Origin: Lama guanicoe
Lineage: Eukaryota
Assembly (NCBI GenBank): GCA_013239625.1
Contig: MU053933.1
Location: forward strand, 374,001-438,000
Reading direction: 5' to 3'
DNA length: 64,000 nucleotides
A model generated the notes under the pieces. That model had not been told where the DNA came from. It ran no database searches and saw nothing but the letters and a program-made list of their open reading frames with translations. The translations under genes were made by a program, and so were the position numbers. Shown piece after piece: positions 3,093 to 57,811 of this stretch (within the stretch, counting starts at the first letter, position 1; every line of letters starts with the position of its first letter).

Positions 3093-6000
3093 CTGAGGGA
3101 ACAAAGGCCGACTTGGATCAGCCCACCCGTCTCCCCCTCACCCGACCGCCCAGTTGGCCTGAAGACATCTCTCACCTCCACCAAAGGGCATATGTTAATC
3201 CTGTCTTGGTTTCTACTCTCAGCACCAGTGGGTGTAGATGCTCACCGATTAGGCGCTGGGACTTATTTTTTAAGAGAAGGCTATGATGATCCGTTCTAAA
3301 ACAGAAAACCAAGAATCGCATCCATCTCCCCACAAAGGCAAACAGCATCACTATCAAATTGTGAGTTGAATATTTTAACAGAATTGTAAACGTATATACT
3401 AACCGTAACTAGCTTTAAGGTGAATGTTCTATTACCTCTAATATTAATTTAAATATTACTATAAAAATGCACACTGTTACTTCCATTGCTTACTTTGAAA
3501 AACACACACTTTTCGTGGTGTTCCTCCCTCCCCCACGAAGGAAAGGATTCAACAGCAAGTTTTCAGGTTAACAAAGAATATATTAAAACATCTGACATTC
3601 TTTCCACAACTGCATAAAAAAGCAGGCACCCTGAATACTTACAAGGAATAATGACCTTTCTACATTTTCAAAAATTAATTACAATCAGAAAAAAACATTT
3701 TCAAGAATATCTTTACTAGCTAATACGTTTCAGCAAGAAAAGACCAACCTGTCTTAAGCCAAGTATTTGCCCACTGGCTGAGATAAACATTCTTAAAAAA
3801 ACCTGTTTACTGAACGAAGTAATTAACATGTCTTTCATTATTTCATAGTTTACATCTTAACATTTAAAATAGTTGAATGAGTGGAAGCATATTTTTTGAC
3901 CACCAAAATAAACTCTTTCAGCTTAATGCTTTTAAAGTACAGTATAAAAAGTAATAGAAAAACCAGAACTGCATTATAAATGTTTTTGGTTCAAAACTTT
4001 ATTTGAAATCTTATGTTCCTTGCCTAGACAAAAATGTGAACAAGACAAAACACTGGCAATTTTTAAAATCTAACAGATATGCAGAGCCTATATTTAGATC
4101 AAAAATACTTTCTGTACTAATTAATGTTATTAAAAATCTTCAAAAATGTAGCATAAAGGTTCAGTTCCTGGGATGCTGAATTTACAGTGCCAGCATCCTG
4201 CGTATCATGGAATTACTAATAAGTAATGACCACTCTGAAGGAAACTGTATTCTGAAGTGACAGCTCCCAGGGTGTTCAGAGTAAGAATTCACATAAAATC
4301 ATATGCTTTAGTTTTGTCTTTAAAATGCATAGATTTCTTCAAGAAAATGTAAAGATGGTAATCATTGACAACTGCAACTTAATTTTACTTTTTCCATCAA
4401 ATTTAAGAACAAAAATAGGACCACACGAACATCTGGGGACTTCTGATAGTTTCCAAATGAAAGAATAAAAGGCAAGATTTCTAAGCCAATTAGAAATGTG
4501 TAAGAATGCTTGTGTTTCGACAAGAAAGTGAGAGTACCTTTCCTACCACCTGTCTGGAGCGCGGGGCCATGTGGGTGAGGACAGGGTGCTTCCTGCCACA
4601 GTGCCGATCCACGTATGCAGCAGAGTATTTCTTAGTCACAGGAGTTGACTTTGTTATTTGAAATAGCTTGCGAAAAAAAAAAAAGAATTCAGTAAACTTG
4701 GAGGCTTACTCCATCACGGCCTTAAAAGGAGTTAGGGGCTTCGGCAGTATTTCTACTTTACGTATCTAACCTCCCTACTAGTGCAGTGATTTTTTTTTCC
4801 TTTTGAAACACCCCACTGAACTTTGGATTACACCTACTGAAAGGCTTTGAATTACAACCTACACAAAACAGGTAAAAAAAGAAACCCAGACCCTATGGGA
4901 CAAAATAAATAGCAAAAATGACTTTTGGACCCTTGAGAGTGCTTTAATACATATGTATGAAATATTCAGCAACGACTTAAAGCAGAATGGTTTCACTGCG
5001 AACGTTCTATCACGATAAATTCCAAAAAATTCTACAGAAATCACAGGGCAAAGAAGGCAGGAAAACTGATTACCATAAATACTGTTCTTGAAGAGCATGT
5101 GGAGAACGCAGTGTGGTTTCTCCCTCTGCTTCAAGTCCCAGGAAGCAAAAGGTACTTTGGGATTCAGAGCAGCTGTACTCACTCTAGGGGGGCCTGGGCG
5201 CTATGTAAATCTTCATCCCAACCTTGTTACACTAATGTTGTTATTAGTGCCATGTGCTACCTTTGTATTTTGCCCCCAGTACACTCAGATTTTCAATCTG
5301 GGACAGCACAGACTTGGGGGAGCAAACACGCACAGCCCTTCAGTGCTGGTATGAATTCAGAGCCTAGACCACTGTGCCCAGGGAGCCCGCCGCTGCCGGG
5401 GATTTGGAAACTGACGTACAGGGGCTTCCGGAAATCTTACTGTTTTCATTCCCCAAGTCTTCCGTCACTAATTATAAGAAATGACTCAAGAGCCAGTTTT
5501 TTGTTATTTTATAAAAATCTAAGTATTACTATTGCTGATTTAAATTTCTCACAATTTTCATACCAAAAAAAAGAGTTCTACATGACCACAAAATACCAAA
5601 TATTTATTTTTATCAAGTGTCAGGATAACTTATTAAAGTTGAGGTTTATCACTTTTTTTTTTATTGCTGAAGGACTCTTAAGATTTTAATCAATACTGCA
5701 AACTACTCCACTTCGTTCTGACATGTTTGACTTAAGAACATGGCTAAGATTTAACTAGAACTTAGGTGTTGTCTTAATATAATTAAAAGAAGAAACACTG
5801 TCACAGTGTTTCTCTAATTGCAAACCAGTGGAAAAAACAAACCACCTCAAGTAAAAGATTATACTGACACCATGGAGTGAGGAACCATGCAAACAACCAA
5901 GAACAAATTTCAACATCAATGAAGTCAAATCATCCTGTGACTGTAAGGTCCAGAAGCACAATATTTTTTAGTTTTTTTCTAGGTTGAGTAAGGACATTAC

Positions 6001-6160: not shown

Positions 6161-9100
6161 CTAATTGTGGGTTTGTTCATGACTCCAGAGACTAAACGCC
6201 GTCTTGAATGTTCTGTGGCAAAGTTTGCACATAAACTGCCTCTTAAACGTGATGGCGGAGAGGGGGGGTGCGTGGTAAAAGAGCGTGTCCGATTCCTGGG
6301 GCACAAACAGTTTCTCGGTGGCGGGAGCGGGGTTTTCGGACAGGCCGGTCGGGCTGTCGGGCTCCAGGGGCTGGATCCTGGGCAGCGGCGGGGGCGGGGG
6401 CAGCGGGGGCGGCGACGGGGAGTTGGTGGGGACGGGGCACAGCTCAGAGTCCTTGTGCGCCGGGTCCTCCGCGGCCTGAGACATGTGGGACTGGAAGTGA
6501 CTCCAGAGCCGAAAGTTGGTGCGAAAAGCTTTGTTGCACACGTGGCAGATGAAGGGCTTCACGGAGCACAGGAGCTCCTGGTGCCGCTCCAGCTGCTTGT
6601 GCGCGGGGAACGTCTTGCCGCACTTCTCGCAGGGCCACAGGCCAGAGTCCTGGCCGGGGGCCGCCTCCTTGGGGGCGGCGCTGGCCTCGGGCACCGCCTC
6701 CTCCTCAGCCTCCTCCACCGGCTCCTCTTTGACCTGGATCTTCAGCTGCCTGGAGAGGCTGAGGTCTTCGGGGAGGCAGGAGGAGTCCTCCGAGTCGAAG
6801 TTGACTTGCTCCGAGCAGTCGCTGAACGCGTTGTCATCCTTGGCGGCGGGCGCGTGGTTGGCTTTGCCGGGCTCGGCCTGGGCCTGGGGCCTGGCGGGGC
6901 CGCTCACCTCGCCGTTGTGGTCCAGCGCGGGCAGGGAGAGGTCCTCGGCCGGCGCCATGGTGTTCTGGTTGTGCACCTCCACCTGGTGCCGCCAGATGCT
7001 GAAGGAGGACTTGAAAGTGCGCATGCACTCCAGGCACGTCAGCTTCTTGTACTCACACTTACCCTCGTGCTCGTGCTTGAGCTCGGGCGAAAAAAACCTA
7101 AGGCTGCAGTAAGGGCAAACGGTGGCGTTTCGGCACAAGCGCTCGTGGTTCCCTTGTTCTAGAAGAGAAGAGAGCTTAGCGTTACAGAGGCGGCACTGGT
7201 AAACCTCCGAGCTCCCTACGGGGCTCTCGGGAGCGGCGCGCTCCTTCGGCTTAGCGGCTCTGTTTACTCCAAGGGGCTTTTCTCCCGGGTGCATCTTTAT
7301 GTGCTGTTTGAACTGAGAGAGGAAGCGATAGGCTTTTCCACAGTACGTACAAATGTACGCTCCTTTGGCTCGGGATCGCAAGTTCCTCTTGATGACTTGT
7401 GCTTGGGAACTAGTCTGGCCCTGGAAGCCAGGCTTCCCGCGCCTGAGCTTAATGATCAGGGCCTTCTTAATCTCTCGCTCCCTTACTATGTCAATCAGCT
7501 TTCTTTGGAATTTTTCATCCAAAACGGCATGTGAACTAGAGGCTGGAGACGGGTTCTTCACTATGCCGTGCTGGGTCTGACAGTGTGTCCACACTTTGAA
7601 GTTGGTGTGAAACCGCTTGTGACAGATGTCGCAAGCGTAGGGCTTTTCGGGGTTATGGTACATGTTAATGTGCCGGTGCAGACCTGCTGTGGATCTAAAG
7701 ATCTTAAGGCAATGTTTGCATTTAAATTTTTTGTTTGGTCTCGTTCCCTCCAACTCACCAAATTCGTCCCTATTCAAGTCCGAATCTGGGAAGTCGGCCT
7801 GGAGGAGAGTGGGGCTGGCGCCTGCCTCAAAATGGTCTTCCGGCCCCGGAGACCCGTGCTCGTCCGCCCTCAGCTTCTTGACCGGCAGCCTCCGGTCCGC
7901 CTGGAACCTCCTCTTCGCCGGGAGCCGGCTCATGTCCTTTGGGTCGTCCTCTGTCTTCAGAGCGAGGTCCCTAGCGCCGGCAGAGGCGGCCGAGGCGTCC
8001 CCCACGGTGACACGGATGATGTCGGAGGGCTCGGGGGGGCTGTGCGGCTCGGCCTTGACCCGCACCTCCACGGCGGGGGGCGCGCCCTCCCGCGCGGCCG
8101 GCTGGGAGGCGCTGAAGGACCGGAGGCGGTGCGGCTGCGGGGCCGGCCGGTCGTCCGGGGCCACCCTCTCGTTGCACTCTTTCACCGAAGCCTTTTGAGA
8201 TAACGCACCGAGTGCGTTCCCTGCTGCGTCGCCGGCCACCGAAGAGGGTCCCAGGGGAGACGTCAAGTCTACCGAGGGCGCGTACACGGGAACCTGGCTG
8301 TCCATCGACAGGGACCGCCGCAGCAGGCTCTTCACCAGCGGGCCGCTCCGGTCGATGCTCTGGTTCCCGGGGCCCGGCCCGCCGGACGGGATCACCAGCC
8401 CCAGCTTCGAGTAATACAGCAAGTTCCGATCCTCGCCCGGGCCGCCCCCTTTGCTGGTTTCCTTCAGCAGGTAGGGCGTCTCAGGCGAGCTCCGCAGAGA
8501 CAGGACGGGCGGCCGCGGCCTCCTGAGGGCCAGCGCTATGGCTCTGCCTTTGGGGAGCGGCGCCCCGGCGGCCGGCTTATCGTCCAGCGCCTCCCGGTCC
8601 GGCAGAGGCTTGGGAGGCAGCGCCGCGGTCCGTTTGGCCGGGCCGCTGCGGGGCGGCTCCTCCGAAGAGCCGGCGTGCTCCGGGGGCTGGGCCGGGCCCA
8701 GCCCGCGAGGCCCGGGAAGGGCCGGGAGGCGTGGCTGAGGTCGGGCTGCCCCTGGCTGACGGGCTTTCCCTGCGCCTCGCTTCGGCCCTGGCACACTATG
8801 ACGCTCCTCTTCTGAGAGCTGTTCTCATCCTCCTCCGCGAGCGCCTTCCTTCTGCTGGGACACGCGGGGAAGGGGGCCTGGGGGCTCTTGGAGGCGATGT
8901 TAGTCAGAAAGGAAATCCCAAGGCTGTAGCCCAGTTCTTGCACGGCGGCAAGGCTGCTTTTCTCAACAAACAAAGATGACGAATAGATGTAGTTCAAAAC
9001 ATTGTCAAAAGCATCTGGCTCACAAAAGTCAAGCTGGAATACAGTCTGTGTCTCGTTCTCCTTATTTGTGAATAAACTCTGGAAGTATTCACTGCTGGCG

Positions 9101-9246
9101 GCCAAGACGTTTTTATGAGCACGAAACTTCTGGTCCCCCACGATCAGAAGCACGTCGCACAGCTGCCCTTTGAGGCGCTCCTCGTTGAGCGCGCTGAGGA
9201 GGGAGATGGCGTGCGCCGGGTTGATGTAATGCAGGAGTCCCTCCAT
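6161..9246 (-). CDS. ZBTB21: Zinc finger and BTB domain-containing protein 21 (ZNF295); single coding exon, frame broken at ~8703 in this sequence
   Basis: ATG at 9246 in strong Kozak context (GCGCC ATG G) starts MEGLLHYINPAHAISLLSALNEERLKGQLCDVLLIVG (BTB/POZ). The second frame carries nine C2H2/C2HC fingers and ends SLWSHEQTHN-TAG at 6161. The span is 3086 nt, not a multiple of 3. Confidence 0.97.
7159..7758 (-). other. ZBTB21: In-frame exonic intron (exitron) within the ZBTB21 coding exon, 600 nt
   Basis: Donor TTG|GTGAGT at 7758; acceptor CTCTCTTCTCTTCTAG|AA at 7159 with branch-like CTGTAAC/GCTAAG just upstream; length 600 = 200 codons; junction reads DEF-EQGNH. Confidence 0.85.
8896..9246 (-). 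other. ZBTB21: BTB/POZ domain-coding segment of ZBTB21
   Basis: LCDVLLIVGDQKFRAHKNVLAASSEYFQSLF...FDNVLNYIYSSSL is a canonical BTB signature; boundaries approximate. Confidence 0.93.
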
Positions 9247-9259
9247 GGCGCGCGCTCGT

Positions 9260-9285
9260 CTGGAAGACAAACGTGAGATCACCGT
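9260..9285 (-). other. ZBTB21: Splice acceptor of the ZBTB21 coding exon
   Basis: Minus strand reads TCTCACGTTTGTCTTCCAG|ACGAGCGCGCGCCATG; the exon starts at 9259, 13 nt before the ATG. Confidence 0.9.
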
Positions 9286-10134
9286 GAGCAACGCGGGAGG
9301 AGCGCTCCCCGAGAGCGGCCCGAGGGCAGGGGCGTCGAAGGTGCCAATGTGCAGCAGGTTGTCGGCGGCGGAGGAAAGCTTTCTGGATAAACAATCTTAT
9401 TTAAATAACACGGAAAATATAAAGAAACCAGTCTCATGGCTTAAGTAGGTCGTCAATGATTAAAATGGAAGAATTTTGGGAACTAAAGACTGTAACTATC
9501 TGCTGTGAATCTAAAACTGCTCTAAAAAATAGTCTATTAATTAAAAAAAAAAAAGAAAAAAGAAAAGACCGTAACTAAAGGCATTTTCATACCATCCAAA
9601 AGGCTTCCAGAACTTGGCAGGTATGCAGAGAAGCAATATTTGAAAACAGGGTTTACTATTTAGCGTTCTTATCCATTTGATGTTTAATTCTATTCCTTAT
9701 TAGCTCAGAGAGTAAGCATAAAGTAGTGAACCCCCTAGAGTCCATAATTCTGAAAGGAAATCAGTTTTATTACTGGATATGATTAAACACAGCATGAATT
9801 AACAATAGGCTATAATGTAGAGGTCTCAGGTGGACCTTTAACAATAGGTAAGGATTTGGAAAGAGAGAAATCATTTGCTAATTACTGCTGCATCAAAGTG
9901 TTTAACAAAGCTATTAGAAATGTTAAACAATAAGAGTTTGTTTTCTTTTTTATGCTAAATACCTTGCAATCTGAATACTATTTTCTTACCAAATTACACT
10001 TTCAACAATAGCACAATGGAACCTTTAGCCTGGATCTAAGCTTAATTATCCTAATTCTAAACTAAGGGATAATGGCTTGAAATTTCACTGAAATTCTCTT
10101 CAAGTCTAAAGGTAAGACATGAAGGCCTAGGGGC

Positions 10135-19997: not shown

Positions 19998-21229
19998 AAA
20001 TGGATTAACCTACTTTCTTCCAAACAAGGAACCAGAATACAACGCTAGTTCCTTGTGGATGACTCAGGGTCATGGTTATGAACAATCACTGGACTCTGCT
20101 GAATAGGTTGGTGCCCTCATTTGCTAGAAGTGAGGAGGGGCTGTTAGCTCCTGCCCTAAGACCCCCCCAGGCTGCTATACTGAGCGGGGTCTGGTTAATG
20201 TCTTCTCCCACCTCCCACTGCCAGGCAATCGCGCTGGAGAATGTCTCTAAAATCACCCCACCCCCATACGTGCTGCAACAGTGGCATCCTCCAGAACCAC
20301 GCGGCCCGGTGGTTGGAGTGCATAGCAACCCGGTTAAGGGCCAGGACTGAGGGGCGCTCCTGCGGTCAAAGGCTTGCTCTTTGGTAGTAGTCTAGGGAAC
20401 CTGCTCTAGATAAGCGGTCTGAGTGATAAGAGAAAACCACCATGGGGACTCCGGCCAGCCGAGGTCTTTGGGCTGGGGTCTCCAGGGCGGCTGGTCGCGA
20501 CGCACCCCACCCCACCGCCTCCGGTTGCAGATTTCGGACTGGGGCTTTCTCGAGTGGGGAGCCCTCCGCATTCCGCAGAGGCGCTTGCGGGCCAGCGGAG
20601 AGACTGTGCCCTGCGGCGGGCGGCGGAGGGTCGGGGAAGCGGGTCCGCTCGGGGGTTTGCGGAAGGCACGCCCGGGGGTCTGCGGAGGGCCGGCCCGGGG
20701 CAAGCAGTCCACTCTGGTCATTGGTTGGTTGTGCCGGCGGCCGCCAGGCGGGGCCCGAGGGGCGGTGGGACAGCGGCGCAGGCCGCGGCAGGTGCGGGGT
20801 CCCACCGCCCCCCAGCTTCCGCGCACACTGCCGCGCAACGGCGGACATCTCCACGCGGGCCGGGACGGAGCACGCGCCCGCGGCCGGAAGGCGCCCCAAC
20901 AGCTCCGCGCAGGGGCACCTGGCCCGGCGAGGGAAGCCCAGTGAGGGACGGAGCGTGCGCAGTGGCGAGGGCGAGGCCAAGTGCGGGCAAGGAGCATGCG
21001 CAGTGTGAAGGCACGATCGGCTACGTGGGAGCCCGGGGCATGCTCGGTGAGAGCCGCGCCCGGCGCACGCGCAGAAGCACTCGGAGCCCGCAACCCGCTG
21101 GCGGAGAGAAAAAGGAGGAGAGAAATCACCTCAGAGTTACGTCAGGAAAGGCCGCGTTTTGCGGGGAGGCTGTGGCCTCCCACGGAGCCCCGCAGTTCTC
21201 CTGGGGCGAGGGGCGTGACAGTTACTCAC

Positions 21230-21335
21230 CGGTCTTCAGCCCCGAGGCAGGCACCGGGCCCCTTTCCGCTCACACTCGGCTCGCGCGCGCCGCAGCCGCC
21301 GCTGCCGCTGTGATTCCATCCATCTTGAATTTGAC
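21230..21335 (-). other. ZBTB21: Non-coding exon 1 (5'UTR) of ZBTB21; 5' end approximate
   Basis: Lies in the CpG island directly downstream (minus sense) of a CRE/E-box/CCAAT/GC-box cluster and ends at donor CCG|GTGAGT (21229-21224). Confidence 0.75.
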
Positions 21336-21426
21336 GTCATCCCACACCAGGGATGAGGTCATCGCAGGCAGCGCTCGTCACGTGCGCGGCTCTGCGATTG
21401 GCCGCCAGGCGCCGGGGGGCGGGGCG
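21332..21426 (-). promoter_or_regulatory. Proximal promoter motif cluster: CRE, CRE-like, E-box, CCAAT, GC box
   Basis: TGACGTCA 21332-21339; GATGAGGTCATC 21352-21363; GTCACGTG 21377-21384; ATTGG 21397-21401; GGGGCGGGGC ~21416-21425. No TATA box seen. Confidence 0.75.
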
Positions 21427-22477
21427 AGGGAGGCGCGCGGCGCGGAGGGCCGGGCGAGGGCGGGCCTGACGGGAGCCGGGGCGCCGCTGCCGCGTCGTGC
21501 CGCGCGCCTTCCGCCCGTTTCCTCCTCCCGCCGCCGCCCGTGGGCCGCCCGGAGAGGAGGCGGCGGGGAGAGCGCCGCGAAGACACGCGCCCGGCGGGGC
21601 TAGCGGGTGGCGCCTCCCCACGCCGGCCCCGCGCGTGGCCGCCGCTCGCCCCTCGGAGGGCAGTTCTCCGACGGCAGCGCCGCGGTGCTCGGCTCCAGGT
21701 GCCTCCCGGCCGGTCGCCGCCGCACCCGCGCGGCCCGCGGACCCGCCGGGAGCGACCTTGAGCCCCGACACTTCTCCCACCTGGGCGGTCGGGTCGCCAG
21801 GGCCCTCGGGCGTGTCCTGGCTGAACAAGGCCTCCAGGTTCCTGCCGCTGGAGCAGGTTGGGCAGCCGCTTGTCACCCAAGTGTGGCATCTGCTTGCCAG
21901 CTGCGTGTTCACGGACAGAACCGCTCACCTGTACTGGGCATCGAGTTGATCACCGCGCAGTCAACTTACTTTCTCAAATACCAGTTCTCGTTGCGTATCT
22001 CACAGACTGCCCTTTTCTTGCATGAACATCACAAGTCCATCAGTTAGAAAACTCAATTCACTTTCATACAAAACCAGGAAATTAGTAGAAGTGCCAACCT
22101 GCAAACACTAACTGTACAGAAAGGTTCTGTTGGACAAGCTAACCGAACATGGTCACCAGATGGCTGTGTTCCTCAAAGCTGGAACAGATCAGATTGCAAG
22201 GGGAAGGGGCTTGCCTTTTGAAGCGATCGTTTCAGGACAGATGTTTAAGTTTTTGGATTTAAATCTATGTTATTTAATATTTTTTAAATGTCTTAATTTT
22301 CAAATTAATTTTTAAAGCAACCTATGCATGTTACCCTAGGTAAAATAATTTATGAAATGTTTGGGGAATATGTGTGAAATAACCTTGCCTGAGGTTGATA
22401 AAAATTAAAGAATTGTTCTGAAATTAACAGCTCTATTGTCAATTGTTTTAGTTTCAGTCATTTTAAGAGGCCCTAGA

Positions 22478-57556: not shown

Positions 57557-57811
57557 GATGCTGGCTGTCCAGCAGGTCGGACGGACACTGTCGGTCCAGC
57601 AGGTCTGGTGCTGGCCACCCGGCAGGTCTGGAGCTGGCCGCCCGGCAGGTCTGGTGCTGGCAGGCAGGTCTGGAGCTAGCTGCCCGGCAGGTCTGGAGCT
57701 GGCTGGCAGGCAGGTCTGGTGCTGGCAGGCAGGTCTGGAGCTGGCCGTCCGGCAGGCCTGGTGCTGGCTGCCCCGCAGGTCTGATGCTGGCTGTAAAGCA
57801 GGTCTGGGAGC
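57557..57811. repeat. GC-rich minisatellite, about 10 units of 19-23 bp, core GCAGGTCTGG(T/A)GCTGG
   Basis: Directly visible tandem array. Confidence 0.93.

Follow-up and report, generated by a model that had tools for sequence, protein, structure and literature searches.

Is ZBTB21 broken in the animal, or only in its assembly? The question arises from a 64,000-nucleotide stretch of Lama guanicoe DNA (assembly GCA_013239625.1, contig MU053933.1, positions 374,001 to 438,000; hereafter the window), in which the reading frame of this gene is lost after the BTB domain. A preliminary description, made from the letters of the window, had named an assembly collapse in very GC-rich DNA as the likeliest cause of the loss. 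Each reading of the lesion considered below is a known kind of event, and the probabilities that we express for them are judgements rather than computed values.

Position and size of the break

ZBTB21 is encoded on the minus strand in a single coding exon, from an ATG at 9246 to a stop at 6161. Translation from this ATG yields 236 amino acids and ends at a premature TAG (8538-8536), and ZBTB21 homology continues past the break in a second frame, which has no stop between 8824 and the terminal one at 6161; this is the arrangement that the preliminary description had reported. The presence of the break in the assembled sequence was thereby confirmed. The locus carries a BTB domain (PF00651) and the C2H2 finger array of the alpaca protein at orthologue-level identity; it has no single unbroken frame, the shift falling at 8701/8698.

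Alignment to the alpaca protein XP_072825732.1 (1061 aa; P0122) showed a net absence of 100 nt (codons 183-216), the window supplying a coding span of 3,083 nt where alpaca needs 3,183. Measured against Camelus proteins the net loss is 85 nt, and these two values replace the ∼94 nt estimated earlier. Homology to P0122 ends at Gly182 (8703-8701) and restarts at Gly217 (8698), leaving 2 nt between the blocks rather than the 23 first described. These are the TG at 8700-8699, which is unfit for Lys183 and whose T is unfit for Ala216 (GCN). The features of the locus are as follows.

9261-9260, minus strand: acceptor AG of the exon, read from the sequence
8701..9246, minus strand: upstream coding block, residues 1-182 (182/182 identical to alpaca P0122)
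8887..9189, minus strand: intact BTB/POZ domain, residues 20-120 (Pfam PF00651, E 3.4e-26, 92 bits)
8699..8700, minus strand: junction bases TG, site of the net 100-nt loss (alignment to P0122)
8684..8704, no strand: perfect 10-bp inverted repeat with a 1-nt centre at 8694; the arm 8704-8695 spans the join
8536..8700, minus strand: out-of-frame tail of 54 residues, 14 of them Arg, with the premature TAG (8538-8536) after it (ORF translation, without database match)
6161..8698, minus strand: downstream coding block, residues 217-1061, comprising what is left of the linker together with every C2H2 finger, the frame staying open as far as the normal stop
8305, minus strand: first in-frame ATG of the downstream block (Met348), with G at +4
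7159..7758, minus strand: in-frame exitron of 600 nt covering residues 530-729, with a GT donor and an AG acceptor, yielding a short isoform
8535, minus strand: E271A relative to alpaca (Ala in 0/115 non-camelid rows)
8262, minus strand: K362T relative to alpaca (Thr in 0/116 non-camelid rows)
6693, minus strand: A885V relative to alpaca, at a variable position (Val in 37/116 non-camelid rows)
6378, minus strand: K990R relative to alpaca, adjoining a polyproline tract (Arg in 0/108 non-camelid rows)

In the 236-aa product the BTB domain is complete and is joined by a portion of the linker and the 54-residue tail, with zero zinc fingers. Identity to the alpaca protein over residues 1-182 extends to the alpaca-type Thr66, Val163 and PGL insertion; since camels lack such features, the animal belongs to the South American camelids. 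Over residues 217-1061 the two proteins agree at 841 of 845 positions; the exitron is also the same, with a corresponding alpaca short isoform (XP_072825736.1). The window differs from alpaca in the loss of codons 183-216, the shifted frame and the substitutions E271A, K362T, A885V and K990R. The statement that both halves are otherwise intact therefore holds for the upstream block but not fully for the downstream one, where three of the four substitutions are unusual. Across the homologues the exitron is exactly absent from 11 of 127. Elsewhere in the window, a CpG island at 20400-22000 with a consensus splice donor at 21229 (minus) probably represents the ZBTB21 promoter together with a non-coding first exon.

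A spliced-out intron as the origin of the hole was rejected, since its ends as expected from the window and the alpaca protein would not be GT/GC-AG at any alpaca-compatible shift. The round figure of 100 nt, considered as a trace of gap handling, was set aside after no mechanism was found.

The GC-rich linker in camelid relatives

The comparison with other camelids proposed in the preliminary description was run at the protein level and found ZBTB21 intact in alpaca and three camels. We aligned 127 proteins, made up of the best 120 of 443 matches, six cluster members and one protein from a search for the shifted tail; among the best 120 of 443 matches the closest relatives of the window protein are camelid. 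The deleted columns hold 26-34 residues in 123 of the 127 homologues. Four proteins are without the segment: in a lizard model 1-252 is missing, in a mouse isoform 52-359, a dromedary model begins at residue 472, and the fourth is an older Bactrian model. All four current camelid RefSeq long isoforms (alpaca, Bactrian, dromedary and wild camel) are full length, the wild-camel entry being labelled 'low quality'.

Compared with the newer Bactrian model XP_074206413.1, which is whole, the older one (XP_045359951.1, P0127, 888 aa) has lost residues 180-247 and 317-416, and its first hole, immediately preceded by two wrong residues, opens after Gly179. This glycine corresponds to alpaca Gly182, so that sequence is lost after the same codon in two assemblies of different genera. 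Unlike the window, P0127 has longer holes (68 and 100 codons) and stays in frame, and its edge is known from the protein alone. The dromedary GenBank model (KAB1283796.1, P0107), which starts at residue 472, also shows a frame shift in the polyproline tract by the K990R site. Altogether, three of the six camelid long-form ZBTB21 models examined show trouble in this gene. As separate observations on the linker, alpaca has five residues more than camels (178-180, 199-200), and the camelid linker (7800-8900 of the window) is shifted towards Ala/Pro/Gly in comparison with most mammals, an effect that GC-biased gene conversion would produce.

GC content in the linker that follows the BTB domain is 75-80%, with GC3 ∼0.9 around the join, and under local codon usage the missing 33 codons would be expected at ∼78% GC; the tile 8601-8800 ranks 12th of 1,276 for GC. 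Missing coding sequence and false SNPs and indels are described as common in GC-rich DNA of older assemblies (PMC9516821), and many New World camelid assemblies are reported to be still fragmented (PMC12127551). Like the false gene losses of the former study, the window has a coding gap in a GC-rich exon of a conserved gene, here with high-GC flanks (75-80%) and with the better assemblies of close relatives intact (4/4 RefSeq long isoforms). It departs from them in that the frameshift class described in PMC9516821 comprises read-verified indels of <10 bp, whereas the present lesion is 100 nt, without N, bears an inverted arm and is known from the consensus alone.

We favour, with some confidence, the view that the 100-nt hole is an assembly artefact and that the animal has an intact ZBTB21, because the gene is whole in the relatives and because this codon is also where an independent assembly fails. 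The same-codon break in the older Bactrian model points to a recurrent technical drop-out in DNA of ∼78% GC. Several observations nevertheless stand against an artefact. The window is without any N, it traverses 11 tiles richer in GC, the promoter island among them, and it shows no further frameshift in 2.5 kb of GC-rich coding sequence. Joins on 4 nt are also rare among assemblers. No other substantial coding sequence suitable for quality control was recognised by eye among 50 ORFs of at least 130 aa at 12,000-64,000.

The inverted repeat at the join

The join has an inverted symmetry that the preliminary description had missed. Positions 8704-8695 match the reverse complement of 8693-8684 exactly, with a single base at the centre and the left arm straddling the join, and the outer arms of the hairpin extend to 16 of 20 matches; the loop is 1-3 nt. 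An inverted arm of at least 10 arose in only 5 of 8,974 simulated blunt deletions (97-103 nt, GC-rich coding tracts), or ∼37 of 8,974 (0.4%) when direct repeats were counted as well, and 0 of 1,482 uncut positions bear such an arm. The 64-kb window holds three such hairpins in all, one of them an AT repeat. A perfect 11-bp inverted repeat with a 1-nt centre also occurs at 5791-5813, in the presumed 3′ UTR. Folding of 8670-8720 gave an ordinary energy (−15.6 kcal/mol, z −0.76, 46 of 200 shuffles equally stable). The stray T at 8700 is given by the inverted copy, so an extra mutation is not needed to explain it.

No direct repeat of ≥9 nt was found within 8500-8900, and the longest junction-spanning direct match is ≤5 nt in the remaining sequence, the deleted DNA being absent from this comparison. 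Since collapse implies a direct repeat, that part of the original wording is unsupported, while an artefact of GC-rich DNA is still the best reading. The join was probably copied by polymerase fold-back, which may have taken place during library preparation or in the germ line; an inverted templated junction alone is not proof of a cellular repair scar. An alternative to templated copying is a Val216 variant together with a chance 4-bp match: Val occupies position 216 in 60 of 116 other species, and the protein constrains just two of the four upstream arm bases.

Under the favoured technical drop-out, true reads would have run out on either side of the GC-rich segment. The downstream tip would have come from a fold-back chimeric molecule, in which the end of a strand annealed to itself at the GGCC-C-GGCC quasi-palindrome and was extended by a few bases of its own sequence. 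During assembly or gap closing this tip would then have been joined to the upstream piece, through a 4-nt GGGC overlap or by abutment, with the frameshift confined to the consensus. Library chimeras with inverted-repeat ends are documented (PMC10908179), and in the fold-back/PDSM molecules described there, as in the window, a strand end is continued by an inverted adjacent copy at a quasi-palindrome. Those chimeras are, however, low-frequency read artefacts in capture sequencing, whereas the join in the window is in the assembly consensus.

The same symmetry would suit a real, rare germline allele, probably heterozygous, formed by snap-back end joining or a replication template switch, which we consider unlikely but a serious alternative. 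The steps, to which we give the same limited credence, would be a break or stall in the GC-rich linker, folding of the downstream end at GGCC-C-GGCC with copying of a few bases, and joining of the fold-back end, now carrying GGGC microhomology, to the upstream end, with a net loss of 100 nt and a templated TG. An inverted arm so far from chance is the described signature of snap-back end joining in cells (PMC5728401) and so counts for an allele and against an artefact. Placement of a junction inside a new perfect inverted repeat with its flank (≤∼30 nt; here a 10-bp arm) is shared with SD-MMEJ and the Pol theta inverted templated insertions of PMC5728401 and PMC11292364. The combination of a deletion, a nearby inverted flank copy and short microhomology likewise fits the 1-4-3-2 class of template switches, given as 31% of high-confidence human-chimp events in PMC5453318. 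The window differs from these systems in its loop of just 1-3 nt, against 6 nt as the most favourable length for inverted templated insertions in PMC11292364, and in that its switch points are not fixed against an intact DNA allele. The remainder of the window reads cleanly, which also favours an allele. Moreover, Zbtb21-null mice are described as viable and normal in learning and brain morphology (PMC11221507), so a real null allele would be tolerated, which tells against the artefact and in favour of an allele or of the wider loss considered below.

Other evidence weighs against the germline allele. Its left edge is shared with the hole in the older assembly of another genus, a coincidence roughly estimated at ∼2% if edges may fall anywhere in the GC-rich tract of ∼330 codons. 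The Val216 variant with a chance 4-bp match would make templating unnecessary. Such lesions also turn up far more often as assembly errors (PMC9516821) than they do as alleles in conserved genes.

Sequencing runs were compared by their content of 205 words sampled from 7800-9800. Among 24 runs listed, 14 DNA runs (5 studies, 5 organism labels; 7 flagged as possible sources) hold 0.94-0.98 of the words, five RNA-labelled runs hold 0.48-0.53, one run guessed to be RNA holds 0.58 and four hold 0.00; the last four and the six RNA or possibly-RNA runs were left out as evidence on the join. The best DNA runs miss 4-5 of the 205 words and none exceeds 0.98, so that no run contains all words, which counts for the artefact and against the allele. 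A join absent from all reads would cost ∼3.1 words. Were the join, E271A and K362T all absent, ∼9.6 missed words would be expected, and ≤5 would have P 0.074 if sampling is independent; at least one of the three is therefore probably present in real animals, a point against the artefact. However, an A12 tract at 9543-9554 could equally set the 0.98 ceiling, and word shares cannot separate the join from the nearby substitutions or from this tract.

Transcript fate, substitutions and splicing

If the germline allele is real, its unspliced mRNA would have no junction downstream of the premature stop, which falls within the last coding exon, and would escape junction-dependent decay. The stop is 778 nt upstream of the donor of the 600-nt exitron, and under the 50-nt rule the downstream exitron junction would mark spliced mRNA for decay. 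Exitron-spliced mRNA would thus be degraded, and unspliced mRNA, whose 3′ untranslated part would be at least 2.5 kb by its AATAAA sites, would give the 236-aa BTB protein with its arginine-rich tail (14 arginines) and no zinc fingers. The argument about nonsense-mediated decay in the preliminary description accordingly holds on paper.

ZBTB21 is described as conserved and as repressing cAMP-response genes, and its excess as harmful to synapses in Down-syndrome mice. By the same source, both BTB domain and fingers are required for its full repression, a zinc-finger-deleted construct represses more weakly and long ZBTB21 cDNA undergoes splicing in cells (PMC11221507). The BTB domain brings about homo- and heteromeric contacts (PMC10359638), and the BTB-only product might act in a dominant-negative manner. 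Tentatively, then, a South American camelid could carry a snap-back or template-switch germline allele whose BTB-only protein blunts the normal repressor, with exitron splicing setting the dose. If so, it would be a living large-animal counterpart to dose reduction of a Down-syndrome-region repressor, and as a natural loss-of-function allele it would let BTB-only dominance and exitron-gated decay be probed directly. If the hole is instead an artefact, assemblies fail repeatedly in the linker of camelid ZBTB21, and a gap-free consensus can conceal a 100-nt hole.

Searches for the shifted tail brought up no database protein that bears it, a point in favour of the artefact. None of 316 word candidates of 129-413 aa carries it, and 3 of 397 candidates of 414-2000 aa match, two from camel (in the shared part only) and one from a rodent (46% identity). 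Among 1.84 billion representative proteins there were three matches, all to unrelated repeat proteins. Metagenome contigs were uninformative, giving 0 matches to a 26-nt flank pattern, with no camelid contig met, and 595 matches to a second pattern, of which 0 were confirmed by the linker peptide.

It is improbable that one lineage of South American camelids has lost ZBTB21 as an old, widespread or fixed change, with the unusual substitutions as decay after the break. Such a loss would account for the finding that E271A, K362T and K990R fall at positions 91-99% conserved, compared with 37-90% for the seven alpaca-Bactrian differences, and that all four substitutions lie downstream of the break. 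The absence of any from the upstream block nevertheless fits length alone (182 of 1,027 residues; P ∼0.46, hand calculation), no second stop or indel has accumulated in 845 codons, the alpaca RefSeq protein is intact and no loss was seen in the other full models examined in the 127-protein alignment. Furthermore, no run among the five organism labels attains 0.99 of the words, and the gene's words do occur in the RNA-labelled runs and in the run guessed to be RNA, a weak argument. No title or opening of an abstract among those listed in our literature search, which covered few subscription journals, describes natural ZBTB21 loss in camelids.

The three unusual substitutions may be consensus errors, real polymorphisms or decay, among which protein data cannot discriminate. 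Each of them creates a perfect 6-bp palindrome (8535, 8262 and 6378, minus), as do 9.7% of random changes (P ∼0.003 for three of four, noticed post hoc), and they may share a cause with the fold-back join.

Least probable of all is a real deletion in a gene kept functional through splicing of a cryptic intron or through re-initiation at Met348 (8305): in arithmetic terms 100 GT..YAG pairs would put the frame right, and there is a G at +4 of the Met348 ATG, but every splice site is weak, and a re-initiated protein would be without the BTB domain, BTB-less ZBTB21 being reported to repress less well (PMC11221507). By simple consensus count, made without a trained splice model, the best donors among these pairs agree with the consensus at 5 of 9 positions, and ≤8 pyrimidines in 17 precede their acceptors, which bears out the earlier judgement that no credible GT-AG intron crosses the junction.

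Two minor observations concern other sequences. A GC-rich tandem repeat with periods of 23, 42 and 65 lies at 57599-57807 of the window. In the protein alignment, six galliform bird 'X2' isoforms (P0095, P0097-P0101) all lack residues 967-1015 (alpaca numbering, polyproline region), which suggests that birds may have a second in-frame ZBTB21 exitron.
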